Source: Acaryochloris marina S15 (GTDB lineage Bacteria > Cyanobacteriota > Cyanobacteriia > Thermosynechococcales > Thermosynechococcaceae). Taken from it: a stretch of 32,000 nucleotides of DNA. Position numbers and translations under genes: made by a program. The notes under the pieces were generated by a model that saw nothing but the letters and a program-made list of their open reading frames with translations, did not search any database and was not told where the DNA came from. Shown piece after piece: positions 15,042 through 30,281 of the stretch; the stretch's first letter is position 1, and each line of letters opens with the position of its first letter. The stretch covers positions 120,001 through 152,000 of the forward strand of contig NZ_CP064925.1 of the NCBI RefSeq assembly GCF_018336915.1. Direction: 5' to 3'.

Positions 15042-15061
15042 CACCTATGGAGATTTTAACC

Positions 15062-16737: not shown

Positions 16738-17004
16738 ATGACTGTAGCACTTCTGACCCCAGAGCAACGATATGCTGCTCTCTATCCATCAACGGTTAAA
16801 TTCGATATCACCATTGACTTCTACCCTGGTGTGGAAGAAGACGGTGAAGAACTTGACCTAAGCATTGAGCTTCCCAGTCAGGCTCATGTGACCAGTCGCC
16901 AACAATGCGAACGCTGGGTAGTAGAAAACTATCCTTCAGGGCGGCTGATCAGTGTCCAGCCTATATTTACGACTCAGCAGTTACTCGCTGAAGACGAATT
17001 CTAA
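16738..17004 (+). CDS. hypothetical acidic protein (88 aa)
   Basis: An ORF with GAGG 9 nt upstream; first gene after leader 2. Confidence 0.5.
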   Translation: MTVALLTPEQRYAALYPSTVKFDITIDFYPGVEEDGEELDLSIELPSQAHVTSRQQCERWVVENYPSGRLISVQPIFTTQQLLAEDEF

Positions 17005-17065
17005 CCCATCCATCTGGGGCACCTCTGCCCCTTCGACCGTTTCAGGAATTTCAGAGGACAATCTT

Positions 17066-17410: not shown

Positions 17411-17495
17411 TATCCCGTCCCTTCTGCGCCCTGGCTCTTGGCTGGGGTGCCCTTCTTCTCTGATTGATACAATGATATTAACGAAGGAAAACGAT

Positions 17496-17726
17496 ATGAC
17501 AGCAGCATCACCTGACAGAGATGACCGAATAGAAAGCACTCTAGAGACTGTTCTAGAGAAGATTCAGCAGATTGATACCAAAGTAGAAAAGCTGGATACC
17601 GATGTTCGTGCTGCCAATGAACGAACTGATACCTACTGGGAAGCCTCGAAGCTGCTGATTAATCTGGCTTTTGGATTGATTGCAACGGCTGTAATTGCCA
17701 TCATCATTCCTGCAGTGTTAAGGTAA
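17496..17726 (+). CDS. small coiled-coil protein with a C-terminal TM helix
   Basis: GAAGGA lies before the ATG at 17496. The C-terminus is LLINLAFGLIATAVIAIIIPAVL. A terminator follows. Confidence 0.5.
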   Translation: MTAASPDRDDRIESTLETVLEKIQQIDTKVEKLDTDVRAANERTDTYWEASKLLINLAFGLIATAVIAIIIPAVLR

Positions 17727-17756
17727 TTCCCATTCCTTCATTTCATTATCTCCAAA

Positions 17757-17790
17757 GCACCCCGGCATCTACTGTCCGGGGTTTTTCTTC
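17757..17790 (+). terminator. rho-independent terminator
   Basis: ACCCCGG-catctactgt-CCGGGGT followed by TTTTCTTC. Confidence 0.7.
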
Positions 17791-17899
17791 TGAAATATTG
17801 GCGGGATATCTCCAAGCCTTGCAACCCAATTAACAGCACCCCCTCCCCCAAAACCTTCTCTTTTCTTTCTTATCCTTCTTGTTCCCCTCACACTCATTT

Positions 17900-17932
17900 G
17901 CCCCCTGGTTCACTGCTAGGGGGCTTTCTTCT
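17900..17932 (+). terminator. second terminator-like hairpin
   Basis: GCCCCCT-ggttcactgct-AGGGGGC followed by TTTCTTCT. Confidence 0.5.
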
Positions 17933-17952
17933 GAATCATCGGAGGCAATCCC

Positions 17953-18108
17953 ATGAAAATCCACATTGCCAAAATCGAAGTCTGGAATGGCCGCACGTTC
18001 CAGCTCATTGACTTTCAGCAGGCCCAAACCCAGGAAAGCCTTGGGTCGGTCATCAGGGAGTATGTTGCCGCTATGGATTTGAAGTTAGTCTATTGGTGTA
18101 AGCAATAG
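17953..18108 (+). CDS. unannotated 51-aa ORF
   Basis: GGAGG lies 7 nt before the ATG. Translation is MKIHIAKIEVWNGRTFQLIDFQQAQTQESLGSVIREYVAAMDLKLVYWCKQ. It is below the track cutoff and is preferred over the antisense 17830..18027 ORF. Confidence 0.45.
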   Translation: MKIHIAKIEVWNGRTFQLIDFQQAQTQESLGSVIREYVAAMDLKLVYWCKQ

Positions 18109-18150
18109 GTCTAAAAATCAGATAAGACATTGAATGTCTTATCTGAAATA

Positions 18151-18654
18151 ATGAAACTCATCATTCTAGATAAGGATGGCACTCTCACTACCCCCAAAAG
18201 CGGCAAGAAGTTTGTGCAAAAACCAGAGGACCAAATATTACTTCCTGGTGTTTTGGATGCCGTGAGATGGCACACCTTACAAGGTCATATGCTTGTCATC
18301 GCCTCAAATCAGGGAGGTGTATCAGCAGGGCATAAAACGATTGAGGAAGTGATCTTAGAGATGAAATATTGTTTACATCTACTCCTCGGGATACAGTCAG
18401 CCTATTTTTGTCCTGATTTAGAGGGCAATCAATGCTGGCATGTGGAACGGCAGAGCAGCTCCCAAATAGAGGTACTGAGGTTCAAAGGCAGAATGCAAAA
18501 ACCTGGAGACGGGATGATTCAGCAAGCGCTTTTAGACCATCCTAGTGTGTCTGAAATACTATTCATTGGTGATCGCCAGGAAGACGAGCAAGCGGCCCAT
18601 ACCGCTGGGGTTGCATTCCAAAGTGCAGAGAGTTGGAGATTGCCCAGAGAATAA
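18151..18654 (+). CDS. HAD-IIIA phosphatase (GmhB / polynucleotide 3'-phosphatase-like)
   Basis: Motif I ILDKDGTL, motif II ASNQGG, then KPGDGM and IGDRQEDEQAA. The ATG at 18151 directly precedes motif I. Confidence 0.8.
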   Translation: MKLIILDKDGTLTTPKSGKKFVQKPEDQILLPGVLDAVRWHTLQGHMLVIASNQGGVSAGHKTIEEVILEMKYCLHLLLGIQSAYFCPDLEGNQCWHVERQSSSQIEVLRFKGRMQKPGDGMIQQALLDHPSVSEILFIGDRQEDEQAAHTAGVAFQSAESWRLPRE

Positions 18655-18825
18655 GGCTATCCCTGGTTCTTGTGGATGCGACCACTTGCTGCTCGTTGAC
18701 AATCGCATCCACGATACAAACTACATCGAAACTTTTCCCTATCTTCCACCTAGAAAAAGACTTCACACCTATTGAACTCCCCTGGCCTATCTGCTGGGGG
18801 TTTCGCGTATCTACTGGAGAAAAAA

Positions 18826-19206
18826 ATGACCATAAACTTTCCCCTTCCCACTCTCAAAGCCCAAACCAATGTCACCAGCTACAGCAGAAACCCCGCTGAT
18901 CATCCCACCCTCGAAAAACTCTCAAATCTTCTCCCCGCCCTTACCCAAGATGCCCTAGCATCCCTCAGTATCATTGCCCTCAATGAAGGCTATGCACCTG
19001 TCGTTGTGCAGGTAGGTTATGGCTGCGGTTGCAATACCTTTAATCGCTGCATCGAACTGATCCAAGACCTCTCCCAGGCTGGCAAGGTTGCCCTGGTTCG
19101 GAGTGTTGCAGAGCTGCTGGCAGTATCGCTTAGCCTTCCAACTCAGCCCCAAGAAATTACTCTGCCCCCTGTGCTATCTTCGCTGACCAAAGGAGTAGAA
19201 CAATGA
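18826..19206 (+). CDS. hypothetical protein (126 aa)
   Basis: GGAG-A6-ATG. The stop overlaps the next start (ATGA at 19203). Confidence 0.5.
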   Translation: MTINFPLPTLKAQTNVTSYSRNPADHPTLEKLSNLLPALTQDALASLSIIALNEGYAPVVVQVGYGCGCNTFNRCIELIQDLSQAGKVALVRSVAELLAVSLSLPTQPQEITLPPVLSSLTKGVEQ

Positions 19207-19649
19207 CACAAATACTAACTGCTAAGGTCAAATTTCCCGCTAAAGAATGGGATACCCAGCATGGTCCAAGACTCAATGCAAAAATCACACTCCCTGATGG
19301 AGAAGATATAAAGATTTGGGGTAATCCCGATGATGCAGTGCTCAAAGCTCTCCGCAAAGGCCAACCTGTCCAGGTCGCTAAGGATAGCAAAGGCAAATAC
19401 AGCCTAGTGGAGCAAGCCCCGGTTCCAGGTCAGCCCCTGGTGGTCGAGGCACCACCCCTGGATACTGGGGAGATAGGGGAGGATGCCAAGAGTGCGATCG
19501 CAAGTTACATTTCCCACCGAGCAGCCCTCTATTCCTTCTGCTACCAAGAAGCATCCAGAGAGCTAGGAAAGCATGAAGTAAGTGAAGAGACGATTAAGTG
19601 TGCGGCCAGTACCTTGTTCATATCTGCTCAGAAAAAGTTTGGTATATGA
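19203..19649 (+). CDS. hypothetical protein (148 aa)
   Basis: AGGAG lies 7 nt upstream. The gene is translationally coupled on both sides. Confidence 0.55.
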   Translation: MTQILTAKVKFPAKEWDTQHGPRLNAKITLPDGEDIKIWGNPDDAVLKALRKGQPVQVAKDSKGKYSLVEQAPVPGQPLVVEAPPLDTGEIGEDAKSAIASYISHRAALYSFCYQEASRELGKHEVSEETIKCAASTLFISAQKKFGI

Positions 19650-19960
19650 ACCTGACCATTGACTGGCAAGCACTGAAGACCCTGACGGAGTATTGCCGGG
19701 AGGATATCAAGGGCTTCTGTGAGGATGAGGGCTTTCCGGTTTACCCTAGTCGCCTTCATCCTTTCCAAGCCCTGTTTCTCCGCAATTTGCTGTTGTGCAA
19801 CTGGTCGGTGCGCGAGGGGTATTTCGCTTATTACTGGCAAGCTCAGCAAGCCTTCGAGTTGTTCTGGGCAGAGCTGCCCGATGATGTCAGTGATTGCCAG
19901 TTGACGAAATCTTGGATTGCCTGGTGTGAGGTTGGCTTGAGCAACAAAAAAGGCAGCTAA
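19646..19960 (+). CDS. hypothetical protein (104 aa)
   Basis: The ATG at 19646 overlaps the preceding stop (ATGA). Confidence 0.5.
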   Translation: MNLTIDWQALKTLTEYCREDIKGFCEDEGFPVYPSRLHPFQALFLRNLLLCNWSVREGYFAYYWQAQQAFELFWAELPDDVSDCQLTKSWIAWCEVGLSNKKGS

Positions 19961-20065
19961 CTCAGAAAGCTACCTTTGGAATTCTAATGAATAAGACATG
20001 TGCTTAGGGTTCCCACTCTGACAGCATTCCCAACATCCCAAGTCATAGGACTACCAAGAAATTCC

Positions 20066-20102
20066 TTGAAAAAAGGCGATTCCCATACCTGAAAATCGCC
20101 TT
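20066..20102 (-). terminator. hairpin H1; canonical intrinsic terminator when read on the minus strand
   Basis: AAGGCGATT-cccatacctgaa-AATCGCCTT preceded on the plus strand by an A6 run, which gives a U-tract only on the minus strand. Confidence 0.5.
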
Positions 20103-20249
20103 GGACTATGTAATTCATATTTCCATTTCTCAAGGAACAACATATCACGGTGCGCTCCCTTGCCCTGCCACTGCGATGTCATCAAGTCCTATCTGGAGTG
20201 GAAGCACCAGAAACCCCGTAGTTAGGGCCGTCTTGACTCAATCGAATCA

Positions 20250-20284
20250 ATGAAAAAGGCGATTCCCAACTAGAAGAATCGCCT
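20250..20284 (-). terminator. hairpin H2, a sequence-related copy of H1
   Basis: AGGCGATTC-ccaactagaa-GAATCGCCT preceded by A5. It shares TGAAAAAGGCGATTCCCA with H1. Confidence 0.5.
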
Positions 20285-20323
20285 CAGCCAATAACCAATT
20301 AAAACTACTAGGAAAAATTTATC

Positions 20324-20605
20324 ATGTTTTCCAAAAAATCTGTGCGGCCCTTAGAGGTGCCGTTAGTTCGTCGTTGCTTTAGTTGTCATCAACTGAAGTT
20401 TGCGATCGCATCCCAAGTATTGATCCATAAATCCTCTGGCTACCCCTATCGTCGCTGGCTTTGCGAGGACTGTGGACAGTCACGAGGTCTATATCCGACA
20501 CAAGAATACCTAAAGAATCTTCGAGAGATGGACGCAGGGGATGAGGCAAAGGTGAAACTGAAGGTTTTGCTCAGGTGTGAGAGGTCAGTGTTGGTGAAGA
20601 CATAA
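20324..20605 (+). CDS. hypothetical protein with a putative zinc-ribbon (CxxH...CxxC)
   Basis: A 93-codon ORF with CFSCH and CEDCG pairs and a weak RBS. Confidence 0.45.
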   Translation: MFSKKSVRPLEVPLVRRCFSCHQLKFAIASQVLIHKSSGYPYRRWLCEDCGQSRGLYPTQEYLKNLREMDAGDEAKVKLKVLLRCERSVLVKT

Positions 20606-20698
20606 GACGTGGATATCTACGCCGATATCAGGCCAAGAATCAACTTTTGAACAACTATCGAAGCTCTATAAAAATCGCATAACTCAAACAGGAGGTAA

Positions 20699-20995
20699 AT
20701 GATGCAGTGCCTTAAACCGTTGACAGCCTCGATCGAGATTCAAGAACTGCGGGAAGTGGGTTGTGATTGGAGCGGTGACCTGTTTGGCTACTATGCCATC
20801 GGTCATCACGATCCAGTGGCTTTTATCCAGGCTGTTAACGCTGAACATAATCCAGATTGTCCTGTTGAAGCTCAACAAGTTCATCAAGGATTTTGGATGG
20901 AATATCCCCTAGAAATCGATAGTGATTGCTACTGCTTTAAGACATGCAATGCAGATATTGAAGGCGCGATTGCCGTCACCTATATCGAAGTTTAA
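20699..20995 (+). CDS. hypothetical Cys-rich protein (98 aa)
   Basis: A strong AGGAGG lies just upstream. Tandem ATGs are present; the one at 20702 has the better spacing. Confidence 0.55.
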   Translation: MMQCLKPLTASIEIQELREVGCDWSGDLFGYYAIGHHDPVAFIQAVNAEHNPDCPVEAQQVHQGFWMEYPLEIDSDCYCFKTCNADIEGAIAVTYIEV

Positions 20996-21043
20996 GGGGA
21001 GCCACAACCCCAATTAGCCAACTAAATATTGGAGGAAACTCTC

Positions 21044-21259
21044 ATGCGCGATTTAGTCTACTCGCCTCAGAATCATCTCGTGTACTTCCTCGGAACTCTC
21101 AGGAGACAAAATGGCACCCGTCTCAAGGTGTTCTCAACCGTTTCCAGGCAGCACGTTCTGATGATTGCCAAGAGTAAATCAGGGAAGTGGAGCAAAGACT
21201 TCACTTCTGTCAAAATTACGGATTTACGCCCCGCTGTCAGACTCAGATTGTGTTGCTAG
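21044..21259 (+). CDS. hypothetical basic protein (71 aa)
   Basis: GGAGG lies before the ATG at 21044. The stop is 12 nt before the next gene. Confidence 0.45.
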   Translation: MRDLVYSPQNHLVYFLGTLRRQNGTRLKVFSTVSRQHVLMIAKSKSGKWSKDFTSVKITDLRPAVRLRLCC

Positions 21260-21271
21260 GGGGTGAGGATC

Positions 21272-22297
21272 ATGAGCGCCACCCAAATGGTCTTGCCCTT
21301 CCAAGTGCCCGGTGCCTCGACGCTTCCTGATCTGTCCACCTATGATCGCATTCTGGTCGCCTTCTCCGGTGGCAAGGATTCTATCTGCTGTCTGTTGCGA
21401 CTACTGGAGTTGGGTATCCCCAAAGACAGGATTGAATTGCATCATCATTTGGTTGATTCAAGGGGCCACAACCTTTTCGACTGGCCTGTCACCGAGAGCT
21501 ATTGCCGCAAATTTGCCCAAGCCTTCGACCTTCCTCTGTATATGAGCTGGCTAGAAGGTGGGCTAGAACGCGAGATGTGTCGCAAGGACCAACCCAAAGC
21601 ACCCACACACTTCCAGACTCCTAATGGTGAGCAAATATCTGGGGGGCAAGGCAAGCCTGGAACTCGGCGCAAGTTCCCAGCAAAGACCGCTGACCTCAAA
21701 ACTCGGTGGTGTTCTTCCTATCTGAAGATTGATGTTCTCAGCACCGCCATTGCCAATCAATCTCGGTTCAACCATGCTCGAACTCTGGTGGTAACCGGAG
21801 AGCGGGCACAGGAGAGTGCCGCTAGAGCAAAGTATCTCACCTTGGAGCCACACCGAACTGATCGGCGGGATAGCCTCAAACTCAGGCGACATATTGACCA
21901 CTGGCGACCCGTCCACTCATATACGAGTGAGCAAGTCTGGGAGATGATTCAGCGCTGGGGAGTCCTGGCACATCCTGCCTACTACCTCGGCTGGGGTCGG
22001 CTGAGCTGTCAGTTCTGCATTTTCGGCTCACCTAATCAGTGGGCTTCTAATGCGGCCATCTCGCCAGAGCGCACAAAGCGGTTGCACCAGTACGAGCAAG
22101 AGTTTCAACACACCATCGACAACAAGCTTTCCATCCCAGACATGGCCGATAAGGGAACGGCTTACGCTGCCATCCACCAGCATCCTGATCAGCTTCGACT
22201 TGCCCTGAGCAATGAATACACAGCCCCAATCCTCGTTGACCCGAATACCTGGACCCTGCCTGCTGGGGCATTTGGGGAGAGCGCAGGACCGACTTAA
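21272..22297 (+). CDS. PAPS-reductase-family PP-loop ATP pyrophosphatase (DndC/IbrA-like class)
   Basis: PP-loop ILVAFSGGKDS. The C-terminal core is WRPVHSYTSEQVWEMIQRWGV..HPAYYLGWGRLSCQFCIF. The RBS is GGGGTGAGGA. Confidence 0.85.
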   Translation: MSATQMVLPFQVPGASTLPDLSTYDRILVAFSGGKDSICCLLRLLELGIPKDRIELHHHLVDSRGHNLFDWPVTESYCRKFAQAFDLPLYMSWLEGGLEREMCRKDQPKAPTHFQTPNGEQISGGQGKPGTRRKFPAKTADLKTRWCSSYLKIDVLSTAIANQSRFNHARTLVVTGERAQESAARAKYLTLEPHRTDRRDSLKLRRHIDHWRPVHSYTSEQVWEMIQRWGVLAHPAYYLGWGRLSCQFCIFGSPNQWASNAAISPERTKRLHQYEQEFQHTIDNKLSIPDMADKGTAYAAIHQHPDQLRLALSNEYTAPILVDPNTWTLPAGAFGESAGPT

Positions 22298-22308
22298 GGA
22301 GATTAGAC

Positions 22309-23760
22309 ATGAAGAAAAAATCTTACATCACAGTCACCGACCAATTTGCTGGGTGTGGTGGTTCGAGCAGTGGTGCTGCTCAAGCGGGCTGTGAAATCGT
22401 GATGGCAATCAACCACTGGGAAAGGGCCGTTGAAACCCACAATACCAACTTTCCCAATACCGCCCATGATTGCCTGGACATCAGCGCTTGCGACCCTTGT
22501 CGCTATCCCAGTACGGATATTTTGCTGAGTTCGCCCGAGTGTACAAACCATACGATTGCGAAAGGAAAAAGACGCAAAAACCTGGGCCAGATGGACTTAT
22601 TTAATCCCCAAACCATCGACCCGGCTGATGAAAGATCAAGGGCTATTTTATGGGATGTCGTCAGATTTTCAGAGGCCCATCGGTACAACTTCATCATCGT
22701 GGAGAACGTTGTTGAGGTGCGTCACTGGATCCTGTTCGATAGCTGGCTTAATGCCATGCACACCTTGGGATATGACCATAAGGCGGTATTCTTCAACAGC
22801 ATGTTTGCCGAAGCACCTCAAAGCAGGGACCGTGTTTACATTGTCTTCTGGAGGAAAAACAACCCTAAACCCAACCTCAGCTTTACCCCCCTGGCCCATT
22901 GCTCCGAATGTGGCGAGGTCGAGGCCATCCAGTCTTGGAAAAACCCATTCAAAAAATGGGGGCGTTACGGCAAGCGCAATCAGTATGTTTATCGCTGTCC
23001 CAGTTGCGCTCAGATCGTGGAGCCTTACTATACCCCAGCCTATACCGCGATTGACTGGAGCTATCCCAGTATCAAGGTGGGTGAGCGCAAAAGACCACTG
23101 AGGCCAGCAACTCTAGACCGCATTCGTAAGGGATTGGAGAAGTTCAACAATCCTGTCCTGGTAGAAACGGCTTACGGCAAAGACACGAGCAATCGGGTTC
23201 GGAGTGTGGAGGGGATTCTTCCCACCCAGACTGCCCGCCAAACAATGGCCTTGGCAATGCCGTTCATTGTCAGGAATTACACGGGGGCGCAGGCCGCTAG
23301 CATTAGTGAGCCACTGCCCACAGTCACCACGGTTGACCATAATTCGCTGGTGCAGCCGTTTATGGTGACACTCCGAAACCACAACCAAGCACACTCACTG
23401 GAGGAGCCGCTAGGTACGGTCACCGCTGGGGGAGGGCATCACGGTTTAGTTCAGCCTTTTCTAGCTAGCTATTACAGTGGCTCAGATCAAGTCTGTGGAG
23501 TGGATAAAGCCATTCCCACCATCACTGCCGGCGACCGCCATGCCCTGGTGCAACCGGATCGCTCTATCTCTGTTGAAGACTGCTATTTTCGCATGTTGCA
23601 ACCTCATGAAATCCAGGCAGCGATGGCCTTTTCTCAAGATTACGTCGTGATTGGCAATAAGCGAGAGAAGGTTAAACAGCTTGGCAACGCCGTTACTCCA
23701 CCCGTAATGCAGATGATTGTGCAACGTTGCCTTGATTCCCTGTCATCCTCAAATTTTTGA
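22309..23760 (+). CDS. DNA (cytosine-5)-methyltransferase
   Basis: Motif I DQFAGCGG, motif IV SSPECTNHT (a variant PC motif), motif VI IVENV, motif VIII QSRDRVYIVF, motif IX RMLQPHEIQAAMAF, motif X QLGNAVTPPV. The RBS is AAGGAG. Confidence 0.95.
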   Translation: MKKKSYITVTDQFAGCGGSSSGAAQAGCEIVMAINHWERAVETHNTNFPNTAHDCLDISACDPCRYPSTDILLSSPECTNHTIAKGKRRKNLGQMDLFNPQTIDPADERSRAILWDVVRFSEAHRYNFIIVENVVEVRHWILFDSWLNAMHTLGYDHKAVFFNSMFAEAPQSRDRVYIVFWRKNNPKPNLSFTPLAHCSECGEVEAIQSWKNPFKKWGRYGKRNQYVYRCPSCAQIVEPYYTPAYTAIDWSYPSIKVGERKRPLRPATLDRIRKGLEKFNNPVLVETAYGKDTSNRVRSVEGILPTQTARQTMALAMPFIVRNYTGAQAASISEPLPTVTTVDHNSLVQPFMVTLRNHNQAHSLEEPLGTVTAGGGHHGLVQPFLASYYSGSDQVCGVDKAIPTITAGDRHALVQPDRSISVEDCYFRMLQPHEIQAAMAFSQDYVVIGNKREKVKQLGNAVTPPVMQMIVQRCLDSLSSSNF

Positions 23761-23813
23761 AACCACAAATCATTTCAGAATCTCGCTGGAATTTGAAAAC
23801 TTAGGAGGCAATT

Positions 23814-23915
23814 ATGAATAGCTACACTCTTGTCTGGTGGCTCATCTGGCAATCCCTCTACTTCGGCATGTTTCTTTATTTCTTCCTCTATGATGCCTTG
23901 AGGAGCTACCCATGA
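23814..23915 (+). CDS. 33-aa hydrophobic micro-ORF
   Basis: TAGGAGG lies 5 nt before the ATG. Translation is MNSYTLVWWLIWQSLYFGMFLYFFLYDALRSYP. Its TGA overlaps the ATG of the next gene (ATGA at 23912). Confidence 0.45.
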   Translation: MNSYTLVWWLIWQSLYFGMFLYFFLYDALRSYP

Positions 23916-25039
23916 TTCACGTACTCAACTTTGGCATGGGCGTAGATTCCGTCGCAATTTTGCTTTCCTGGATTTACAGCCCCAAAACCCGCCCTTTTGC
24001 TAGTTTTGATGATTTGATATTGATAACTGCCCAAACGGGTAACGAACATCAATCCACTAAGCACTTGGTCGAAGCACACATCTTGCCCTTGCTCAGGCAA
24101 CATCAGATTCGCTTTGTCCAGGTCGCCAAGGCGGGTCACTCTAAAAAAGATGGATACACCGTCTTGAGTGATACTCGAAACCCCCAGATCTGCCATATCG
24201 AAGGCGATTACACTCTCGGTCATTCTCTCAAAATTGCAGGCACAAGCCAACCTGTGAGTGGTGCCCATACCTGTGCCATGAAGTTTAAAGGTGTCGTCAT
24301 TGATAGCTGGATATCGGATCATCTCTCTGGTGAGGCCATCGGTCCATATCTGGGTTATTGCAAAGGGGAAGAAAAGCGCTCAGCCAAGTGTGCTGATTAC
24401 CCCTGCATGGGGTCTGATTATCGATTTCCGCTCCAAGAATGGGGCTGGGATAGACAGACCTGCATTGACTACATCCGTGAAAAGACCGGGGCAGATTGGC
24501 TCAAGTCGGCCTGTGTTTTCTGTCCCTTCTGTAAGCCCGAACAGGCGAGACAGCGCTGGGAAGCTGAACCGGATGCGGGCCTGTACGCCTTGGTTTTGGA
24601 AGCTGCGGCGCTTGCCCTCAACCCCAGAATGAAGCTTTTTGCCAGTCGTTCTGCCTGGGAGGTTGCTCCCCAATCTGTCAGGGAGCTGGCAGTGAATCAC
24701 CTAGACTCAATTGACTGGGCGGTTTACCGGGTCGAGCGCATTTATCAAGGTAAGCAAATCAGTAGGCGAGTCACGCGAGTGTCTGAGCCGATGCATCGCA
24801 GTGCTGCTGATGCTCAAGTCAGTGTGATTGCCAAGCAACACGGCTGTGCTTGCGATGCATCAGACCCGACCTACGTCAGAGCTTATGAGTATCACAAAAA
24901 ATCTAATGAGTCCCTGACCTGTGAAGGGTTCTGGGTTGCTGCACCTGGATTTATTCAAGATAAGGTGCATCGACCGAATTACTTTGAGCAGACCTGGCAA
25001 GAGGCGACCGGGAAGGTCAAGCAGCTCTCACTAGTTTGA
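23912..25039 (+). CDS. divergent PP-loop-like (PAPS-reductase-like, phage-type) protein
   Basis: N-terminal VLNFGMGVDSVAILL lies at the position of the SGGxDS P-loop. A mid-protein Cys cluster is ACVFCPFC. The assignment is by motif only. Confidence 0.55.
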   Translation: MIHVLNFGMGVDSVAILLSWIYSPKTRPFASFDDLILITAQTGNEHQSTKHLVEAHILPLLRQHQIRFVQVAKAGHSKKDGYTVLSDTRNPQICHIEGDYTLGHSLKIAGTSQPVSGAHTCAMKFKGVVIDSWISDHLSGEAIGPYLGYCKGEEKRSAKCADYPCMGSDYRFPLQEWGWDRQTCIDYIREKTGADWLKSACVFCPFCKPEQARQRWEAEPDAGLYALVLEAAALALNPRMKLFASRSAWEVAPQSVRELAVNHLDSIDWAVYRVERIYQGKQISRRVTRVSEPMHRSAADAQVSVIAKQHGCACDASDPTYVRAYEYHKKSNESLTCEGFWVAAPGFIQDKVHRPNYFEQTWQEATGKVKQLSLV

Positions 25040-25082
25040 ATAATTTGACTGAATACAACTCTCTATACCTTGGAGCAAAACC

Positions 25083-25700
25083 ATGTATGCCCCCACTGAC
25101 AAGCGTGGTCAGCAGAAGCTTGCTATTACGCTCAACCTTGTTCCGAATACCCCAGCCCTTCCTGTGGGTACCTATTCCCTGATCGTGGCTGATCCACCGT
25201 GGAGCTATCACCTCAGAGAATCTGACAAAACCCATCGGGGGCGGTGCCCTTATCCCTCGATGACCGATGAGGAAATCATGGCGATGCCTGTGAGTTCGAT
25301 TGCGGCTCAAGATTCTTATCTGTTGTTGTGGACGACAAACAACCACCTACCTTTGGCCTTCAAAGTCATGGAGTTATGGGGGTTTGAGTACAAGGCACTT
25401 CATACGTGGGTCAAAGTCACACGAGACAGGTCCAAGATCCGATACGGTATCGGACACTATGGGCGAAATTGCACCGAACAAATTTTGGTAGGCCGCAAAG
25501 GTAAGGCCAAAACCTTTACTGCTCTCGGACTGACCAATATTCCCACTGCATTCCAGGCTCCCCTTGGTCAGCACTCTCAGAAGCCAGAAGAGTTTTACCA
25601 GATGGCAGATCGGCTAGGTGATGCCCTCGGTGGTCAGCGGATTGAGTTGTTCTCTCGGTGCCCTCGTCCAGGCTGGGAGAACTGGGGAGCGGAGGCATAG
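25083..25700 (+). CDS. MT-A70-family DNA N6-adenine methyltransferase
   Basis: YSLIVADPPWSY (DPPW catalytic motif), LLLWTTN, and HSQKPEEFY. Confidence 0.9.
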   Translation: MYAPTDKRGQQKLAITLNLVPNTPALPVGTYSLIVADPPWSYHLRESDKTHRGRCPYPSMTDEEIMAMPVSSIAAQDSYLLLWTTNNHLPLAFKVMELWGFEYKALHTWVKVTRDRSKIRYGIGHYGRNCTEQILVGRKGKAKTFTALGLTNIPTAFQAPLGQHSQKPEEFYQMADRLGDALGGQRIELFSRCPRPGWENWGAEA

Positions 25701-25702
25701 CC

Positions 25703-26152
25703 ATGAAAATCCTCACCCTCTGGCAACCGTGGGCAACCTTCATTGCCCTGGACCTCAAGCGCTATGAAACCCGATCATGGGGCACTCGCTACCGAGGCAA
25801 GCTAGCGATTCATGCGGCCAAGCGACCTATCGGTTTAGACGGGCAAGCCATAGTGAGCCAAGTTAATGATCTGACGGGTGGCAAGGTGCCGCGCAAACCA
25901 TGTGATTACCCACTCGGTTGCATTGTGGCAATTGCGGATCTGGTGGACTGTCCCCAGATGGACTCGAAGCTGATCAGCAGACAAACCGAACTGGAGCTGG
26001 CCGTGGGGTGCTGGCAACCTGGGCGCTTTGCATGGCAGTTAGGAAACATCGTTGTACTGCCTGATCCTATTCCCTATCGCGGGAGCCAGGGACTCCGGGA
26101 TGTCCGACCTGATGTACTGAAAATTTTGATGGAGTTAACCAATGGAGAATAG
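25703..26152 (+). CDS. ASCH-domain protein
   Basis: MKILTLWQPWATFIALDLKRYETRSWGTRYRGKLAIHAA fits the ASCH pattern. GGAGG lies upstream, and the gene starts 2 nt after the preceding stop. Confidence 0.8.
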   Translation: MKILTLWQPWATFIALDLKRYETRSWGTRYRGKLAIHAAKRPIGLDGQAIVSQVNDLTGGKVPRKPCDYPLGCIVAIADLVDCPQMDSKLISRQTELELAVGCWQPGRFAWQLGNIVVLPDPIPYRGSQGLRDVRPDVLKILMELTNGE

Positions 26153-26945
26153 CAAGATTGAGTGGACTGCAACTCAAAAACCAGATGGGACATGGGAACC
26201 TGGATACACTTTCAACCCTTGGATCGGCTGCGCCCACATCAGTCCTGGCTGTGCAAATTGCTACGCCGAAACCCTGATGGATAAAAGATATCATCGCGTG
26301 AAGTGGGGTAAGAACGGAACCAGATCGCGCACCTCAGAAACCTATTGGAAGCAACCCCATAAGTGGAATCGCAAAGCTGCGAAGTTCGGGGTCACTAAAA
26401 CTGTGTTCTGCGCGTCTTTAGCCGATGTGTTTGAGGACCGAGATGATCTGATCGATTGGCGATTGGATCTGTTTGATACTGTCATCGACAAAACGCCCAA
26501 CCTAACCTGGCTTCTACTCACCAAGCGGGTAGATGTTGCGGCTAAGTTTTTCCAATTCAGACAAGCAATACCCAACGTCTGGTTGGGCCATAGCATCTGC
26601 ACCCAGCATGAATATGATGTCGTCATTCCCAAGCTAGCAAAGTTGCGGAAGAAAGTTGGTGGGATTTTTCTAAGTTGCGAACCCCTGCTTGAACCCTTGG
26701 ATCTTGGTGATTCTCCCGCGAATTGGATTATTGCCGGGGGTGAATCTGGCCCTGGCGCACGGCCTTGCGATGTGGACTGGATTCGCTCAATTCGGGACCA
26801 ATGCAAGACCGCAGATATACCCGTGTTTATCAAGCAGCTCGGCAGCAAACCCGTGGGTGTTCCCAAACTCCGTTCTGCGAAGGGTGGAGACATTCACGAG
26901 TGGCCTGATGATTTGCGAGTGAGGGAATTTCCAGAGTTTGGATGA
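26142..26945 (+). CDS. DUF5131 (phage Gp37/Gp68 family) protein
   Basis: IEWT...FNPWIGCAHISPGCANCYAE, then LLLTKR, SCEPLL, IIAGGESGPGARP and FIKQLG. It overlaps the ASCH gene by 11 nt. Confidence 0.9.
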   Translation: MENSKIEWTATQKPDGTWEPGYTFNPWIGCAHISPGCANCYAETLMDKRYHRVKWGKNGTRSRTSETYWKQPHKWNRKAAKFGVTKTVFCASLADVFEDRDDLIDWRLDLFDTVIDKTPNLTWLLLTKRVDVAAKFFQFRQAIPNVWLGHSICTQHEYDVVIPKLAKLRKKVGGIFLSCEPLLEPLDLGDSPANWIIAGGESGPGARPCDVDWIRSIRDQCKTADIPVFIKQLGSKPVGVPKLRSAKGGDIHEWPDDLRVREFPEFG

Positions 26946-26960
26946 TGGAGGTGATTGTGG

Positions 26961-27308
26961 ATGCTGAGTGAAGATATAGAGGGTTGGCGAGTGGGTCTAA
27001 AGTCTGAGACTCAAATCGGCCTGGAGTTTCAGACTTTGGAAATATCTGGGCCAGGAAATTTGAAGATTGAGATCCAACGCTTCGTTCTATCAGATGTTGC
27101 CATTGAGGGCTTTGTGAATTTGGAAAAAGAGCCACCACTGTATTACAAATTGGGTTTCTCGTATTTTGAAGTGGCGAACAAATGCAAGGTGTATCTCGAT
27201 TATTATTTTACGGGGGAGCCAGAAGCATATCTGATCGTGGGATGCGCTCATTGGGTGATACCGTGCAAATTCGCACAGAAACTCGTCCATGTTTTCTTGC
27301 TGGGCTAG
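26961..27308 (+). CDS. hypothetical protein (115 aa)
   Basis: GGAGG lies 9 nt before the ATG at 26961. It is the last gene of the coupled run. Confidence 0.45.
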   Translation: MLSEDIEGWRVGLKSETQIGLEFQTLEISGPGNLKIEIQRFVLSDVAIEGFVNLEKEPPLYYKLGFSYFEVANKCKVYLDYYFTGEPEAYLIVGCAHWVIPCKFAQKLVHVFLLG

Positions 27309-27748
27309 GTATTTGCCAATTCAGCACAGTTGACAAAACATGCCCATTTTGTCAGTACAGGAGACGAAAAAATACTGTTCTCAATCTCGTGTTCTGTCTC
27401 AGTCGTCATCAAATTAATCGCTTCCAACACAGTTGATTGAGAAAAGTACACTAAACATCAGCAAAGGTTAGTCTCCCTCCCCCACCGATCAGAAACCCTA
27501 ATCTCCCAATCATTGTAGTACCAAGCCATTCACACTACCCTAGTCACTAGGCAGTGGGACAGACCCACCCAAAGTTTTTCCTCCAAATCCAACCCGCCTA
27601 CGGCTCCAAATCGAGCCTGATTTTTGCTGGCGGTATATTCCCCAAGAGGCAAAGACCTCCCTTTCCGTTTTCTCAATATCAATATGGCCGACTTGGTTGC
27701 ACATGCCAGTCGTGCCTATCCACTATTCGTTCTTAAAGGACAACACTC

Positions 27749-28405
27749 ATGAGATTGATTACAAGCATTCAAGTAAAGCAAGCCGAACACACTGAAGTCA
27801 TCGACACTGCTGCTACCCAAGTGGGCCTAGCTGCAAACAAAGCCTTCCTGTTCGTCATCCGCAAGGAAATCCAAGGCTGGAAAAACCTGACGGCCCTCAT
27901 CTCTTGGGGATTGTCCAAGGTAGAACAAAAGCATGGCCCCATCTTTGAGGAAGTCAAAGGACGTACTGTAGCTGTTTTCCGCAAAGGTTGTCAGCAAGAG
28001 ACGGTGTTCGTACAGGGGCTAATCAAGACCCAGCTCACGGATCGCCTTGATGCCCACTGGGAACTGCACGATAAGGCTATCGACTGGTTCAAGGTCCAGA
28101 CTCAGGCATTCCTGGCCGATAGCCCGGTTGAGGATACTTCTGAGGTTGATGCTGAGGATCAGGCTCCTGATGTTGCGGAAGACCTGGAGGAGCTTGCATC
28201 TGTGGCTGAAGTGGAGGAGCCTATCAGTGAAGTTGAGGAATCCCCTGTCCTTGTCTTCGACCCTGACCCGCTGGATGATGAGCTGGGTGTTCCTCAAAAC
28301 CCGACTCCTGTTGTGGCTAGTGGTGGGGGCAAGCGTCGGACTGCTAAGAAGAAAGTTGAGTCATCGCTGTCTAGCATGATGAGGGAAGAGGCCGCAAAGT
28401 CTTAG
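27749..28405 (+). CDS. hypothetical protein with an acidic C-terminal half
   Basis: A 218-codon ORF with an AAAGGA RBS and an acidic, low-complexity tail (EVDAEDQAPDVAEDLEELASVAEVEEPISEVEE). Confidence 0.55.
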   Translation: MRLITSIQVKQAEHTEVIDTAATQVGLAANKAFLFVIRKEIQGWKNLTALISWGLSKVEQKHGPIFEEVKGRTVAVFRKGCQQETVFVQGLIKTQLTDRLDAHWELHDKAIDWFKVQTQAFLADSPVEDTSEVDAEDQAPDVAEDLEELASVAEVEEPISEVEESPVLVFDPDPLDDELGVPQNPTPVVASGGGKRRTAKKKVESSLSSMMREEAAKS

Positions 28406-28894: not shown

Positions 28895-30281
28895 GGCTCT
28901 CCGGTAATTAGCGTGGTGACACCCTACATATAGTGTTTATTCCTTAGTCATCTCCTATGGAATGATCTGAGGAGGTACTTCAGAACGAGAGTGTCATGGA
29001 TAACTCAATTCGCATTCCCCTCAACCTTCCCGATGTTCAAGTTCTAGAGCTATCGAAGACGGAACGAGGGGATTGGCTGATCAAAATTGAGAGTACTCTG
29101 CAAGGAACAACCTGCCACAAATGTGGACATGAGATTACTGACCTTCACTGCCATGATCAGGCTCTTCGAATTCGTCACATGCCATTGTTCGAAGTACCAG
29201 TGTATTTAGAAATTCGGCCCAAGCGCTATCGATGCGGGTATTGCGATGACCATCCCACAACAACTCAACGCTTAGAATGGCATGAACCTCGCAGTCCCAA
29301 TACAAAAGCTTATGAGCATTGGCTTCTGCGTATCCTGATCAACTCAACGGTCTCAGATGTTGCTAGAAAACTAGGCGTTAGTGAAGGTGTCGTCAGTGGC
29401 ATTATTGATCGCTGGATTGCCTGTCAAGTTGACTGGAGCGAATATTTAGACCTCAAGGTTATCGGGATTGACGAGATTTCTCTGAAAAGAGGCCACCGTG
29501 ATTTTGTAGTTTTGATCACGATTCCTACCACAGGCGGAGTAGACATATTGGCAGTTCTGGCTGACCGTAAACAACAGACCGTTGCAAATTTCCTTAAATC
29601 GATTCCCCTTCATTTACGCCAAACCATTGAGCGGGTTTGTACTGATATGTATCAAGGATTTGTCAGTGCAGTCCGTGAACAACTCCCTCAATCCAAAATT
29701 GTCATTGACCGCTTTCATGTGGCCAAAGCCTATCGTAATTGTGCCGATACAGTTCGTAAACGGGAGGTCAAACGTCTACGCCAAGAACTCCCTAAGCAAG
29801 ACTATGACAGTATCAAAGGTGCGATGTGGGCCTTTCGAAAACGGCCTGAGAATCTCCAGGAGTCAGAACAACAGTTGCTTGAGCGAGTGTTTGCTTATTC
29901 TCCTGAGATGAAGCAGGCCTACAAACTCCGAGAGGAATTGACACAGATATTTGAGGGTAGGTACACCAAAAACGGAGCTAAATGTGCCATCCGGGCTTGG
30001 TGTAAACGAGTCCTCAAAAGTGACATCAAGGATTTTGAGAGTTTCCTGATCACTGTCAACAATTGGATGGATGAGATGACCAACTATTTTCTGGAGGGAT
30101 GGACCAGTGGCTTTGTCGAAGGATTTAACAACCGAGTTAAGGTCCTAAAAAGACGATGCTACGGTATTTTCGATATTGAAAGGCTCTTCCAAAGGATTTC
30201 GCTTGATCTCAATGGGTATCAGACTTTTGCCTTGACCTAAACACTATATCTAGCGGCTACCACGCTAATTCCCAGAGAGCC
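28895..30281 (+). mobile_element. ISL3-family insertion sequence (1387 bp), intact
   Basis: Terminal inverted repeats GGCTCTCCGGTAATTAGCGTGGT and ACCACGCTAATTCCCAGAGAGCC. A perfect 8-bp direct duplication TAAAAAAT lies at 28887-28894 and 30282-30289. Confidence 0.9.
28996..30240 (+). CDS. ISL3-family transposase
   Basis: N-terminal zinc finger (CHKCGH...CGYCD), an HTH segment, and a DDE domain (IGIDEISLKRGH.., CTDMYQGF.., GFVEGFNNRVKVLKRRCYG). Confidence 0.95.
   Translation: MDNSIRIPLNLPDVQVLELSKTERGDWLIKIESTLQGTTCHKCGHEITDLHCHDQALRIRHMPLFEVPVYLEIRPKRYRCGYCDDHPTTTQRLEWHEPRSPNTKAYEHWLLRILINSTVSDVARKLGVSEGVVSGIIDRWIACQVDWSEYLDLKVIGIDEISLKRGHRDFVVLITIPTTGGVDILAVLADRKQQTVANFLKSIPLHLRQTIERVCTDMYQGFVSAVREQLPQSKIVIDRFHVAKAYRNCADTVRKREVKRLRQELPKQDYDSIKGAMWAFRKRPENLQESEQQLLERVFAYSPEMKQAYKLREELTQIFEGRYTKNGAKCAIRAWCKRVLKSDIKDFESFLITVNNWMDEMTNYFLEGWTSGFVEGFNNRVKVLKRRCYGIFDIERLFQRISLDLNGYQTFALT

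Follow-up and report, generated by a model that had tools for sequence, protein, structure and literature searches.

The window analysed here is a stretch of DNA of 32,000 nucleotides, in which nine co-directional plus-strand ORFs occupy positions 21044-27308. The cassette opens with a 71-aa leading ORF (21044-21259), whose ATG is internal to an ORF starting at a TTG at 21029. It is followed by PP-loop protein 1 (344 aa, 21263-22297), which carries FSGGKDS and whose RefSeq orthologue starts at the ATG equivalent to 21272; a C5-cytosine DNA methyltransferase (483 aa, 22309-23760); a hydrophobic micro-ORF (33 aa, 23814-23915); PP-loop protein 2 (375 aa, 23912-25039), with GMGVDS in place; an MT-A70 N6-adenine DNA methyltransferase (205 aa, 25083-25700) with DPPW; an ASCH-domain protein with a PUA-like fold (149 aa, 25703-26152); a DUF5131 (Gp37/Gp68) protein (267 aa, 26142-26945); and a last ORF of 115 aa (26961-27308; 117 aa if counted from 26955). 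Re-deriving the ORF coordinates and reading the junctions from the sequence gave the same close packing as a preliminary description of the locus, with a CCATGA overlap at 23912, a 2-nt gap in TAG-CC-ATG at 25698-25705 and an 11-nt overlap at 26142. The other intergenic gaps were 3-12, 11, 53, 43 and 9-15 nt. Coupling this tight equally fits a co-expressed functional unit. Promoter-like and terminator-like sites in the cassette showed no excess over the shuffled expectation, which leaves a single operon plausible.

PP-loop protein 1 matched PF01507 (PAPS_reduct) with an E-value of 8.6e-8 and 32.8 bits (cut-off 22.5), phrog_424 at 2e-29 and also the PADLOC MTase_II model. The best PDB match to its AlphaFold model (pLDDT 90.8) was the APS reductase 2goy (TM 0.63), and C150, C249 and C252 were invariant. 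It is predicted to be a PAPS-reductase/DndC-superfamily ATP-pyrophosphatase-like protein with an SGGKDS motif. PP-loop protein 2 gave no match in Pfam, NCBIfam or PADLOC; it matched phrog_424 'PAPS reductase' at 2.8e-12, and hhalign of its family profile against the PP-loop protein 1 family gave 93.7% probability (E 2e-7), with the PP-loop, C..K, G.R..ES and SCxxC motifs in register. Its AlphaFold model (pLDDT 94.9) was closest to a Vibrio phage PAPS reductase in BFVD (E 4e-6) and matched the PDB weakly. With conserved C121, C184, C201 and C204 and an extra C-terminal alpha/beta domain, PP-loop protein 2 is, as judged from profiles and predicted structure, a divergent member of the PAPS-reductase superfamily.

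The C5 methyltransferase matched PF00145 (E 4e-31), TIGR00675 and phrog_116 (9e-66), its best PADLOC match being DrmMII (3e-41). The FAGCGG, SPEC, ENV, QSRDR and GNAV motifs are visible, together with three repeated TRD-like segments at aa 305, 337 and 403. The MT-A70 protein matched PF05063 (E 1.8e-34), phrog_359 (2.6e-63) and PADLOC MTase_II (4e-54); its gene is split by a 1.49-kb IS in plasmid pMB03 but intact in the window. Both the C5-cytosine and the N6-adenine enzyme thus read as intact orphan DNA methyltransferases with no cognate nuclease. Domain searches of the cassette and its immediate flanks found no nuclease, helicase or ATPase, the small ORFs matching no family, and the view that the layout is not that of a classical R-M, Dnd, Ssp or BREX system was upheld, such partners being absent.

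Residues 4-85 of the ASCH protein matched the ASCH domain of human ASC-1/TRIP4 in the PDB (phmmer, E 1.2e-12). The protein also matched phrog_3193 (1.9e-34), had no Pfam match at E <= 0.01, and has RefSeq orthologues named 'ASCH domain-containing protein'. The DUF5131 protein gave a strong full-length match to PF07505 (E 8.7e-60), and matched phrog_2045 (1.3e-70), the PADLOC candidates PDC-M41B and PDC-M30B (3e-44) and, weakly, TIGR04471 'radical SAM mobile pair'; searches detected neither a TcmP-like nor an rSAM-pair partner. DUF5131 is a radical-SAM subgroup at RadicalSAM.org (PMC9477430), and the protein, which lies on a mobile element, is predicted to be radical-SAM-superfamily-like. Its three-cysteine motif is CAHISPGCANC, that is Cx6Cx2C and not the Cx7Cx2C first reported; the gene identifications themselves (by PF01507, PF00145, PF05063, PF07505, phmmer for ASCH, and phrog_424 and hhalign for PP-loop protein 2) were right. 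ASCH and DUF5131 are translationally coupled, and their 11-nt overlap was kept in pMB03, pREC3 and pREB1. Of 23 viral DUF5131 loci, 22 lacked this pairing, and across the 23 DUF5131 had no recurrent partner.

In profile searches the leading and the last ORF matched no family. The leading ORF was nevertheless 85-100% conserved at the cassette head in pMB03, pREB1, pMB01 and pREB3, and 42% identical in a related contig (L200), while the last ORF was 74-100% conserved after DUF5131 in pMB03, pREB1 and pREB3. The predicted micro-ORF has an AGGAGG ribosome-binding site, and its stop overlaps the start of PP-loop protein 2 (ATGA). It was kept in pREC3 and pREB3, coupled there to MT-A70 rather than to PP-loop protein 2.

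The window was 98.9% identical to plasmid pMB03 of Acaryochloris sp. 'Moss Beach', and partial copies were present on 13 other Acaryochloris plasmid records, several of them typed as conjugative (MOBF/MPF_T); its DNA is accordingly assigned by similarity to an Acaryochloris (cyanobacterial) megaplasmid. The cassette is enclosed in a wider plus-strand accessory block of about 13 kb (15011-28405) which, by Pfam matches, holds DUF932, DUF3768, a PNK3P-like HAD phosphatase, small ORFs, the cassette and a 218-aa acidic protein. The backbone order DUF932, DUF3768, cassette, parAB was the same in pMB03, pREB1, pMB01 and pREB3; some of these plasmids also have SSB and DUF4326, and parAB stands at the far end. 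No relaxase or oriT was found within the window and the MobF relaxase of pREB1 is about 26 kb away from the block, so that the label 'leading region' is unproven. The canonical anti-restriction genes ArdA, KlcA, ArdC and Ocr were likewise not found within the window.

Gene content within this common block differed between the sister plasmids by many insertions and deletions. Compared with pREC3 and pREB3, the cassette shows a clean indel of the PP-loop protein 2 gene, and in pREC3 the boundary of its absence coincides exactly with the ATGA junction of the micro-ORF. Plasmids pREB1 and pMB01 have kept only the leading ORF, a PP-loop protein 1 remnant, ASCH and DUF5131; pREB3 has a PP-loop protein 1 remnant and MT-A70, along with DUF5131 in a different allele. 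On contig L200, downstream of DUF3768 and SSB, the genes for MT-A70, PP-loop protein 1, an N6/N4 methyltransferase, a C5 methyltransferase and DUF5131 stand in an order different from that of the cassette. These varying subsets and indels argue that the cassette is a modular toolbox and not a fixed pathway.

Smaller parts of the array recur elsewhere. Among 136 immediate neighbours of PP-loop protein 1 homologues at 72 loci, the commonest annotated were DNA methyltransferases (C5 five times, N6_N4 three times, D12 once), and ArdC, Lar, RadC and DUF5131 also occurred; in Sphingobium the homologues adjoin ParB, an ArdC-like zincin and SSB. A PAPS-reductase gene lay within 2.5 kb of a PP-loop protein 2 member in 18 of 75 loci (about 24%), spanning Acidobacteriota, Actinomycetota and viral contigs; as a rough comparison, a PAPS-like gene was present in 3 of the 23 DUF5131 loci. 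One such pair overlaps by 4 nt (L126), and contiguous arrangements include C5 methyltransferase-PP2-PAPS (L077) and DUF6094 methyltransferase-PP2-C5 methyltransferase (L138). In Pseudoalteromonas phage KB12-38 PP-loop protein 1 is followed by a C5 methyltransferase, and a betaproteobacterial element, seen in 98 blocks of the contig collection, has the two genes the other way round. Two PAPS-type genes stand together in KB12-38 and in pSDM007. The suggested functional link of PP-loop proteins and methyltransferases gains from these adjacencies in several phyla and from a PAPS-Dam phage fusion, but they concern a minority of loci, and most homologues of PP-loop protein 1, PP-loop protein 2 and DUF5131 stand without other cassette members. 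Because the two PP-loop families co-occur in only about 24% of loci and a methyltransferase directly adjoins PP-loop protein 1 in only about 13%, part of the association could reflect a shared island habitat and not a shared function. As for recurrence of the gene order, sub-modules recur across phyla, and sister plasmids retain just parts of the full architecture.

We favour the reading that the accessory backbone of an Acaryochloris megaplasmid carries here a modular array of genes for self-protection and anti-defence, and neither a defence system nor one fixed route of biosynthesis; we regard this as probable though far from certain. The role of the cassette would most likely be to shield the plasmid from host restriction, rather than to build one exotic base. 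On entry of the plasmid into a cell, or during its maintenance there, its DNA would be methylated pre-emptively by the two methylases and so be spared cutting by host R-M systems. The PAPS-reductase-like proteins would act alongside the methylases. They may introduce a further DNA modification that depends on ATP and possibly on sulfur or an Fe-S cluster, or else they may imitate or disturb DndC, SspD or BrxP of modification-based defences, as is reported of a phage PAPS-Dam fusion that escapes Dnd. ASCH and DUF5131 would form a separate sub-module acting on nucleic acid, and the parts would be gained and lost independently, as fits an arms-race toolbox. The self-protection or anti-restriction cassette on a mobile element, offered as an alternative in the preliminary description, is in keeping with the Acaryochloris plasmid and its co-directional block of DUF932, DUF3768, in places SSB, and parAB, and with homologues that adjoin ArdC, ParB, SSB, RadC, Lar, relaxases and orphan methyltransferases on other conjugative elements.

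The closest known settings are as follows. Plasmid leading regions are enriched in orphan methyltransferases and SSB (Samuel et al. 2024, PMC11541004). The cassette resembles these regions and the anti-defence islands that conjugative plasmids carry, as well as phage orphan methyltransferases, in its nuclease-less C5 and N6A enzymes, its co-direction with establishment-type families (DUF932, DUF3768, ParB nearby; SSB in sister plasmids and L200) and its gene content that varies between relatives. It differs in that its position relative to oriT is not established and that ArdA, KlcA, PsiB and anti-CRISPR genes were not found; its two PP-loop proteins, ASCH and DUF5131 are not described as anti-defence genes in that work. 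In Vibrio podovirus p0018 a fusion of a PAPS domain with Dam belongs to an anti-Dnd determinant and is needed for Dnd escape (bioRxiv 10.1101/2021.05.05.442762). There too a PAPS-reductase-superfamily domain is linked to a DNA methyltransferase on a mobile element, in a context of counter-defence and not of sulfur metabolism. However, the cassette has separate genes of two different families, its methyltransferases are C5 and MT-A70 and not Dam, and no Dnd system is known for its host. PAPS reductases have also been found in Aca-regulated anti-defence operons (10.64898/2026.07.27.740549).

The strongest competitor, to which we give a minor share of the probability, is one coherent DNA hypermodification pathway, in which the C5-methyltransferase-fold enzyme and/or MT-A70 would install a group, the PP-loop enzymes would adenylate and elaborate it (e.g. 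by amidation or thiolation), and radical-SAM-like DUF5131 and ASCH would add chemistry or recognition. It would account for the tight translational coupling along the whole array, for the PP-loop/methyltransferase trios, paired PAPS-type genes and fusions described above, for the MTase_II match of PP-loop protein 1 and for the conserved Cys triads or tetrads of both PP-loop families, which are compatible with an Fe-S cluster. However, single members were lost or gained among closely related plasmids with the remainder intact, the C5 methyltransferase has all the canonical methyltransferase motifs, and no precursor-synthesis genes of the kind in known hypermodification clusters are present. The earlier idea that two PP-loop enzymes bracketing the C5 methyltransferase form one pathway is thus hard to reconcile with the PP-loop protein 2 indel, the plasmid subsets, the gene order of L200 and the DUF5131 loci, and a multi-step pathway is the less likely alternative.

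Host-protective anti-phage defence, either modification-based with an unrecognised effector or of a PDC-M30/M41-type candidate, is improbable. The PDC-M41B and PDC-M30B matches of DUF5131, the DISARM DrmMII match of the C5 methyltransferase and the weak BrxP, DndC and SspD matches of PP-loop protein 1 point this way, but none of 10 proteins (the eight larger cassette ORFs, leaving out the micro-ORF, and two upstream ORFs) matched the partners PDC-M30A/M41A, DrmA/B/C, BrxC/PglZ, DndD/E/FGH or SspB/C/E, and the neighbourhoods are plasmid or phage accessory or anti-restriction regions. DndC, SspD and BrxP (Dnd, Ssp, BREX type 4) share with the PP-loop proteins the superfamily, PP-loop, C..K motif, C-terminal CxxC, a probable Fe-S cluster and an association with DNA modification. 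PP-loop protein 1 nevertheless matched them weakly and partially, far under the curated cut-offs (TIGR03183: 35.9 bits vs 290); the DndC models cover about 450-590 positions, much more than either PP-loop protein, and the cassette has no cysteine desulfurase, DndD/E, SspB/C or BREX partner. A chance juxtaposition of unrelated accessory genes, in which the PAPS reductases would serve sulfur metabolism, draws on the PHROG label 'auxiliary metabolic', a preprint on sulfur assimilation by prophage PAPS reductases (10.64898/2026.02.18.706556) and the differing cassette content, but is very improbable given that both PP-loop proteins lack the CysH-type C-terminal catalytic ECG[LI]H motif, that SGGKDS of PP-loop protein 1 is a canonical ATP-type PP-loop, that the neighbours are DNA-acting and not sulfur-pathway genes, and that distant elements carry the same set of genes again.

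Both PP-loop families reach well beyond Acaryochloris. Any match to PP-loop protein 1 was found on 1,603 plasmids, 1,160 of them typed conjugative, IncC included, and full-length homologues on 1,433. The IncC/IncA 'phosphoadenosine phosphosulfate reductase family protein' (e.g. WP_000946102.1, beside repA) aligns to 93% of PP-loop protein 1 at 44% identity, has the same conserved motifs and is found on conjugative plasmids, but has no adjacent methyltransferase, PP-loop protein 2, ASCH or DUF5131; no description of its function was found in the literature searched. PP-loop protein 2 belongs to a large family as yet without a name, with at least 511 clusters at 50% identity (E <= 1e-30) and no Pfam domain on any homologue. 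Methylases and relaxases are among its recurrent neighbours; homologues also lie beside RadC, ParB, SSB, DUF3560 and LPD29, and at 11 cyanobacterial loci they lie about 2 kb downstream of a MobA/VirD2 relaxase.

The cassette consists of nine co-directional plus-strand ORFs at 21044–27308, an arrangement proposed in the preliminary description and present in the ORF list. A small leading ORF (21044–21259) is followed by PP-loop protein 1 (21263–22297), a C5 cytosine methyltransferase (MTase; 22309–23760), a hydrophobic micro-ORF of 33 aa (23814–23915), PP-loop protein 2 (PP2; 23912–25039), an MT-A70 MTase (25083–25700), an ASCH protein (25703–26152), a DUF5131 protein (26142–26945) and a last small ORF (26955/26961–27308). 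The close spacing described for these ORFs was confirmed by reading the sequence directly: the stop codon of the micro-ORF shares CCATGA with the ATG at 23912, MT-A70 and ASCH are separated by 2 nt (TAG-CC-ATG), and ASCH and DUF5131 overlap by 11 nt. The remaining intergenic gaps are 3 to 53 nt. Promoter and terminator scans gave no excess over the shuffled background and are therefore uninformative on operon boundaries. The profiles PF01507, PF00145, PF05063 and PF07505 all matched, with concordant results from PHROG, NCBIfam and PADLOC, and the profile searches agreed with the earlier reading that no recognisable nuclease, helicase or ATPase domain lies in or adjoining the cassette.

The cassette encodes two intact orphan methylases. 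The C5 MTase belongs to the C5-cytosine DNA methyltransferases (PF00145, 109 bits), and its translation contains FAGCGG, SPEC, ENV, QSRDR and GNAV for the tested motifs I, IV, VI, VIII and X. Its variable region holds three tandem PT[VIQ]T...L[VA][QM]P segments, at residues 305, 337 and 403, and this repeat layout resembles that of multispecific phage methylases with several target-recognition domains. The second enzyme is an MT-A70 family member, matching PF05063 over profile positions 1–172 of 172 (119.6 bits) with the motif IV sequence DPPW. For the micro-ORF the ribosome-binding site is AGGAGG, and the junction at its end, with the stop overlapping the downstream start, is kept on three plasmids (homologous loci L002 12325–12423 and L011 9215–9313), leading into PP2 here and into MT-A70 in the sister plasmids pREC3 and pREB3. 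It resembles a leader for translational coupling, or else a cassette junction.

PP-loop protein 1 scored 32.8 bits against PF01507 (cut-off 22.5), carries an SGGKDS motif and is a member of the PAPS reductase superfamily (adenine nucleotide alpha-hydrolase/PP-loop fold). The top structural match of its AlphaFold model (pLDDT 90.8) was APS reductase 2goy (TM 0.63), ahead of TilS, PAPS reductase, FMN adenylyltransferase and QueC. When both PP-loop proteins and the DUF5131 protein were compared with PDB sequences using phmmer or hmmsearch, nothing meaningful was returned; a colicin S4 match to the PP2 family profile was judged spurious.

The proposal that PP2 is a second, divergent PP-loop-like protein was borne out by three lines of evidence. 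PP2 had no Pfam, NCBIfam or PADLOC match, and phrog_424 (PAPS reductase) matched it at 2.8e-12. Alignment of a 42-sequence PP2 family profile to the PP-loop protein 1 family profile with hhalign gave a probability of 93.7% (E 2e-7), pairing GMGVDS with SGGKDS, HTCAMKFK with RWCSSYLK, GY..E..R with TGER..ES and SACVFCPF with LSCQFCIF. The AlphaFold model of PP2 (pLDDT 94.9) had as its best BFVD match a Vibrio phage PAPS reductase (E 4e-6, TM 0.45). With the PP-loop, C..K, acidic G.R/K..E and SCxxC elements in register, PP2 was assigned to the PAPS reductase superfamily. A Foldseek comparison with the PDB matched the nitrile synthetase ArtA (E 6.5e-4, TM 0.33) and was not taken as functional evidence because this match is weak with a low TM. 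Since the PP-loop is degenerate (GMGVDS), use of ATP or another nucleotide by PP2 is not assured. Eight residues are invariant or nearly so across the family (G8, G10, S13, C121, K126, C184, C201 and C204). By analogy with APS reductase and DndC, the conserved cysteine triad of protein 1 (C150, C249 and C252) and the tetrad of protein 2 (C121, C184, C201 and C204) suggest that both proteins may carry Fe-S clusters.

The ASCH call rests on similarity to the human ASC-1/TRIP4 domain: with phmmer, residues 4–85 matched five PDB human ASC-1 ASCH sequences with E from 1.2e-12 to 1.7e-11, and RefSeq calls the orthologues ASCH, whereas the Pfam ASCH model (PF04266) gave no match at E ≤ 0.01. By sequence similarity the protein belongs with the ASCH domains. 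The DUF5131/Gp37-Gp68 protein was clearly identified (PF07505, 202.7 bits against a cut-off of 28.9); its three-cysteine motif at residues 30–40 is Cx6Cx2C and not Cx7Cx2C as first given. DUF5131 is included in the radical-SAM superfamily by classification (PMC9477430). Literature searches on DUF5131 and on mobile-element ASCH proteins gave classification or unrelated papers only. Neither ASCH-DUF5131 nor MT-A70-ASCH-DUF5131 could be upheld as a widely conserved module: among 23 viral DUF5131 loci no partner recurred, each neighbouring Pfam family occurring once only, and ASCH was nearby at one of the 23. The ASCH-DUF5131 coupling is Acaryochloris-specific.

Relatives of PP-loop protein 1 are abundant on mobile elements. 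The family is extensive and well conserved, with 2,683 clusters in the database at E ≤ 1e-10 and identities that typically lie at 53–60%, and full-length homologues occur on 1,433 PLSDB plasmids; counting any match, there are 1,603 plasmids, 1,160 of them typed as conjugative. Viral contigs gave no matches with a single-sequence query, and an alignment query was needed. We took a census of 136 immediate same-strand neighbours at 72 loci having at least 3 kb on either side. The top Pfam families were DNA methylases (C5 five times, N6_N4 three times and D12 once), and ArdC-N, Lar, RadC, a polyvalent-protein zincin and DUF5131 were also found. In a betaproteobacterial element, represented by 98 blocks of the contig collection, a C5 MTase is followed by a PP-loop protein 1 homologue and then an N6/N4 MTase. 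On a Sphingobium plasmid the order is ParB, an ArdC-like zincin, the homologue and then, farther away, SSB. In the IncC backbone the homologue adjoins repA with no MTase neighbour; literature searches on the IncC gene returned classification or unrelated papers only. Pseudoalteromonas phage KB12-38 (L014 3484–7963) has an MTase beside a protein-2-like PAPS gene and, farther along, a PP-loop protein 1 homologue beside a C5 MTase, then DndB. Pseudomonas hygromyciniae pSDM007 (L038 6860–9886) has two different PAPS-family genes in tandem; it and KB12-38 are unrelated elements that both hold two different genes of this family. DpdA is the DNA transglycosylase family of 7-deazaguanine systems, and a Rubrivivax island groups DpdA, a PP-loop protein 1 homologue and a C5 MTase in a stretch of a few kb; there the DpdA homologue (L202 2467–3432, an R. 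gelatinosus contig) lies 2.5 kb upstream of the PP-loop gene, with the C5 methylase near.

The PP2 family, which is unnamed and has no Pfam domain, numbers 511 representatives (50% identity) at E ≤ 1e-30 and 2,081 at E ≤ 1e-10, from Cyanobacteria, Acidobacteriota, Actinomycetota, Chloroflexota, Heliomicrobium and large viral contigs. A PAPS-reductase gene was found within 2.5 kb of the PP2 homologue at 18 of 75 eligible loci, in nearly all cases in the same orientation and mostly directly upstream, for example with a 4-nt overlap in L126 and contiguity in L069, L077 and L099. PF01507 was also the commonest Pfam family among the immediate neighbours (9 of 147), followed by C5 MTase, DUF6094 MTase, SSB, ParB and DUF3560. 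Contiguous trios were seen in Streptosporangium (L077; C5 MTase-PP2-PAPS) and in two viral contigs (L138 and L140; DUF6094 MTase-PP2-C5 MTase). At 11 cyanobacterial loci a MobA/VirD2 relaxase is found about 2 kb upstream of the PP2 homologue, and further PP2 loci have RadC, ParB, PLD, DUF932, SSB or LPD29 nearby. In the cyanobacterial loci L052–L062 and L091 a relaxase, unknowns of 443 and 146 aa, the PP2 homologue, a 98-aa unknown and a Gp157-like protein are conserved; this block probably represents a family of conjugative or mobilisable elements. The PP-loop/MTase and PP-loop/PP-loop sub-modules thus recur across phyla, but in a minority of loci.

The cassette lies within a co-directional plus-strand accessory block of about 13 kb (15011–28405), comprising DUF932 (15011–16117), DUF3768 (16952–17410), a polynucleotide-kinase-3'-phosphatase-like HAD protein (PNK3P-like; 18130–18654), small ORFs, the cassette itself and a 218-aa acidic protein. 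After the block come a response regulator, an ISL3 transposase and parB. The ISL3-family transposase (PF01610, E 1.8e-73) occupies 28996–30240, with the response regulator on one side and the next conserved ORF on the other, and is absent from that position in pMB03. This backbone order is common to pMB03, pREB1, pMB01 and pREB3, with SSB/DUF4326 in some and parAB at the far end. The blocks on the sister plasmids start with DUF932 and DUF3768, and on the metagenomic contig L200 (ENA ctg353207) DUF3768 likewise stands at the head. Several sister plasmids are typed as conjugative (MOBF, MPF_T). No relaxase or oriT was found in the window; in pREB1 a MobF relaxase lies about 26 kb from the block. 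At the DNA level, a 6.4-kb region was 98.9% identical to pMB03 of Acaryochloris sp. 'Moss Beach', and partial copies (79–90% identity) were present on 13 further Acaryochloris plasmid records. Phage genomes gave three weak matches, to the methylase gene only. A prophage origin was rejected, as phage structural genes are absent and the DNA matches outside the methylase are to plasmids. In pMB03 the 5' end of the MT-A70 gene is split by a 1.49-kb IS (L001 13038–14665, equivalent to 25103–25113 here), whose transposase ORFs are fragmented and whose target duplication is 11 bp long. MT-A70 is intact in the window, which is therefore a close relative of pMB03 and not pMB03 itself.

The sister plasmids provide natural deletion variants of the cassette. 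On pREC3, which lacks PP2, the genes are PP-loop protein 1, two additional small ones, the C5 MTase, the micro-ORF, MT-A70, ASCH and DUF5131. The alignment shows the micro-ORF CCATGA coupled straight to MT-A70 in pREC3 and pREB3, indicating that PP2 is an exact indel at this junction. What pREB1 and pMB01 retain is the small ORF at the head, 35 aa of PP-loop protein 1 as a remnant, ASCH and DUF5131. On pREB3 there are a remnant of PP-loop protein 1, the micro-ORF and MT-A70, together with another allele of DUF5131 (39% identity). On contig L200 (1065–10492), downstream of DUF3768 and SSB, the order is a small ORF, MT-A70, PP-loop protein 1 (68% identical), a zinc-finger ORF, an N6/N4 MTase, the C5 MTase (63% identical), a 112-aa ORF and DUF5131; relative to the cassette it has an extra N6/N4 methylase and SSB, and has no PP2 or ASCH. 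Such a pattern speaks against a pathway that needs all nine genes, and for a modular gene set with a common theme. A single multi-step DNA hypermodification pathway, as the preliminary description had put forward, would suit the tight coupling of the genes and the recurrent PP-loop/MTase adjacency, but with gene order shuffled and members lost by natural deletion, we regard it as unlikely. The alternative given in that description, a self-protection cassette carried by a mobile element, fits.

We consider that the cassette is probably a plasmid self-protection and anti-defence island. This is favoured by what is known of orphan MTases and by two precedents for PAPS-type proteins. Orphan MTases of phages and plasmids shield incoming DNA from restriction-modification (R-M) and are enriched in plasmid leading regions (PMC11541004). 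In a Vibrio podovirus, joint transfer of the PAPS-domain-Dam fusion p0018 and the adjacent unknown p0019 permits infection of a Dnd host (10.1101/2021.05.05.442762), the sole experimental precedent we found for the PP-loop proteins, and Aca-regulated anti-defence operons contain PAPS reductases (2026 preprint, 10.64898/2026.07.27.740549). In the proposed island, methylation by the two orphan MTases would block R-M. The DndC-like PP-loop proteins could themselves add an ATP-dependent modification, or they could imitate host machinery of the DndC/SspD/BrxP type and interfere with it, and ASCH-DUF5131 may form a separate nucleic-acid-directed sub-module.

By analogy, the cassette would work like the orphan-methylase/anti-restriction islands of conjugative plasmids and phages. 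In the plasmid leading-region islands of Samuel et al. 2024, orphan MTases, SSB, anti-restriction genes and ssDNA promoters (Frpo) are enriched. The cassette has orphan MTases; SSB is found in pREB1 and L200, not in the window, and no ArdA or KlcA was found. Those islands lie within roughly the first tens of ORFs on the leading side of oriT and are co-oriented with transfer. Here the 13-kb block is co-directional and may or may not be a leading region, with no relaxase or oriT in the window, the MobF relaxase of pREB1 about 26 kb away, and a relaxase about 2 kb upstream of the PP2 homologue at the 11 cyanobacterial loci. As a whole, the cassette is a fairly ordinary plasmid accessory-gene mosaic. 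It is unusual in that a canonical PAPS reductase of mobile elements stands with a second family of the PAPS superfamily, one without a name, and in its ASCH-DUF5131 pair.

It is quite improbable, in our estimate, that PP2 is the founding member of a family of DndC-like Fe-S PP-loop enzymes of conjugative elements which, with the canonical mobile-element PAPS reductase and MTases, install an undescribed DNA modification by which incoming plasmid DNA evades modification-sensing defences; thiolation or amidation of the backbone or of bases, with no Dnd or Ssp partners involved, would be an example.

A host defence system is very unlikely. PADLOC did report components (PDC-M30B/M41B and DrmMII, with weak BrxP, DndC and SspD matches), but components only, with the partner or effector absent in each comparison. 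The DndC model TIGR03183 gave 35.9 bits against a cut-off of 290.4, over residues 145–231 only, and no neighbour matched a Dnd partner in PADLOC or Pfam. Matches to SspD (7.6e-7) and BrxP (1.1e-11) were partial, both over residues 146–287, and no SspA/B/C(/E) or BrxC/PglZ/BrxL partners were found in the window. For DISARM, the C5 MTase alone matched DrmMII (3e-41), with no helicase, DUF1998 or PLD among the window ORFs tested. A type II R-M system was rejected because no recognisable nuclease domain was found in the ORFs of 18.7–28.4 kb by Pfam, PHROG, NCBIfam or PADLOC, although the small ORFs could still hide one.

That these are sulfur-metabolism genes or chance neighbours can be dismissed as extremely improbable: their neighbourhoods are DNA-centred, and the PP-loop proteins are not CysH (assimilatory PAPS/APS reductase), since both lack ECG[LI]H and scores are far under the equivalog cut-offs (NF002537, 18.6 bits against 154; TIGR02055, 20.4 against 235).

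Among the accessory genes of plasmids and phages that lack an explanation, those for PAPS-reductase-like proteins rank with the most common, the PP-loop protein 1 subfamily by itself being on more than 1,400 sequenced plasmids, the clinically important IncC included, and their function is hinted at by a single genetic result, anti-Dnd. A 6.3-kb expressible unit here unites a canonical member, a divergent and unnamed paralogue family, two MTases, ASCH and a radical-SAM-like protein. Together with the deletion variants it is a compact, naturally dissected test bed for these 'PAPS reductases', in which it can be tested whether the PP-loop enzymes modify DNA or sabotage modification-based immunity of the host, and it reveals a sizeable uncharacterised sister family. 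If the enzymes modify DNA, the known epigenetic marks and anti-restriction strategies would each grow by one; otherwise the orphan methylases and accessory genes of this region make up an ordinary mosaic.

Elsewhere in the window, two overlapping ORFs at 3111–4173 (HTH_33/HTH_29, then DDE_3) resemble an IS630-family transposase expressed through programmed frameshifting. An ORF at 681–1856 with Nfu_N, Virulence_fact and HEAT/PBS-lyase repeats is unrelated to the cassette.
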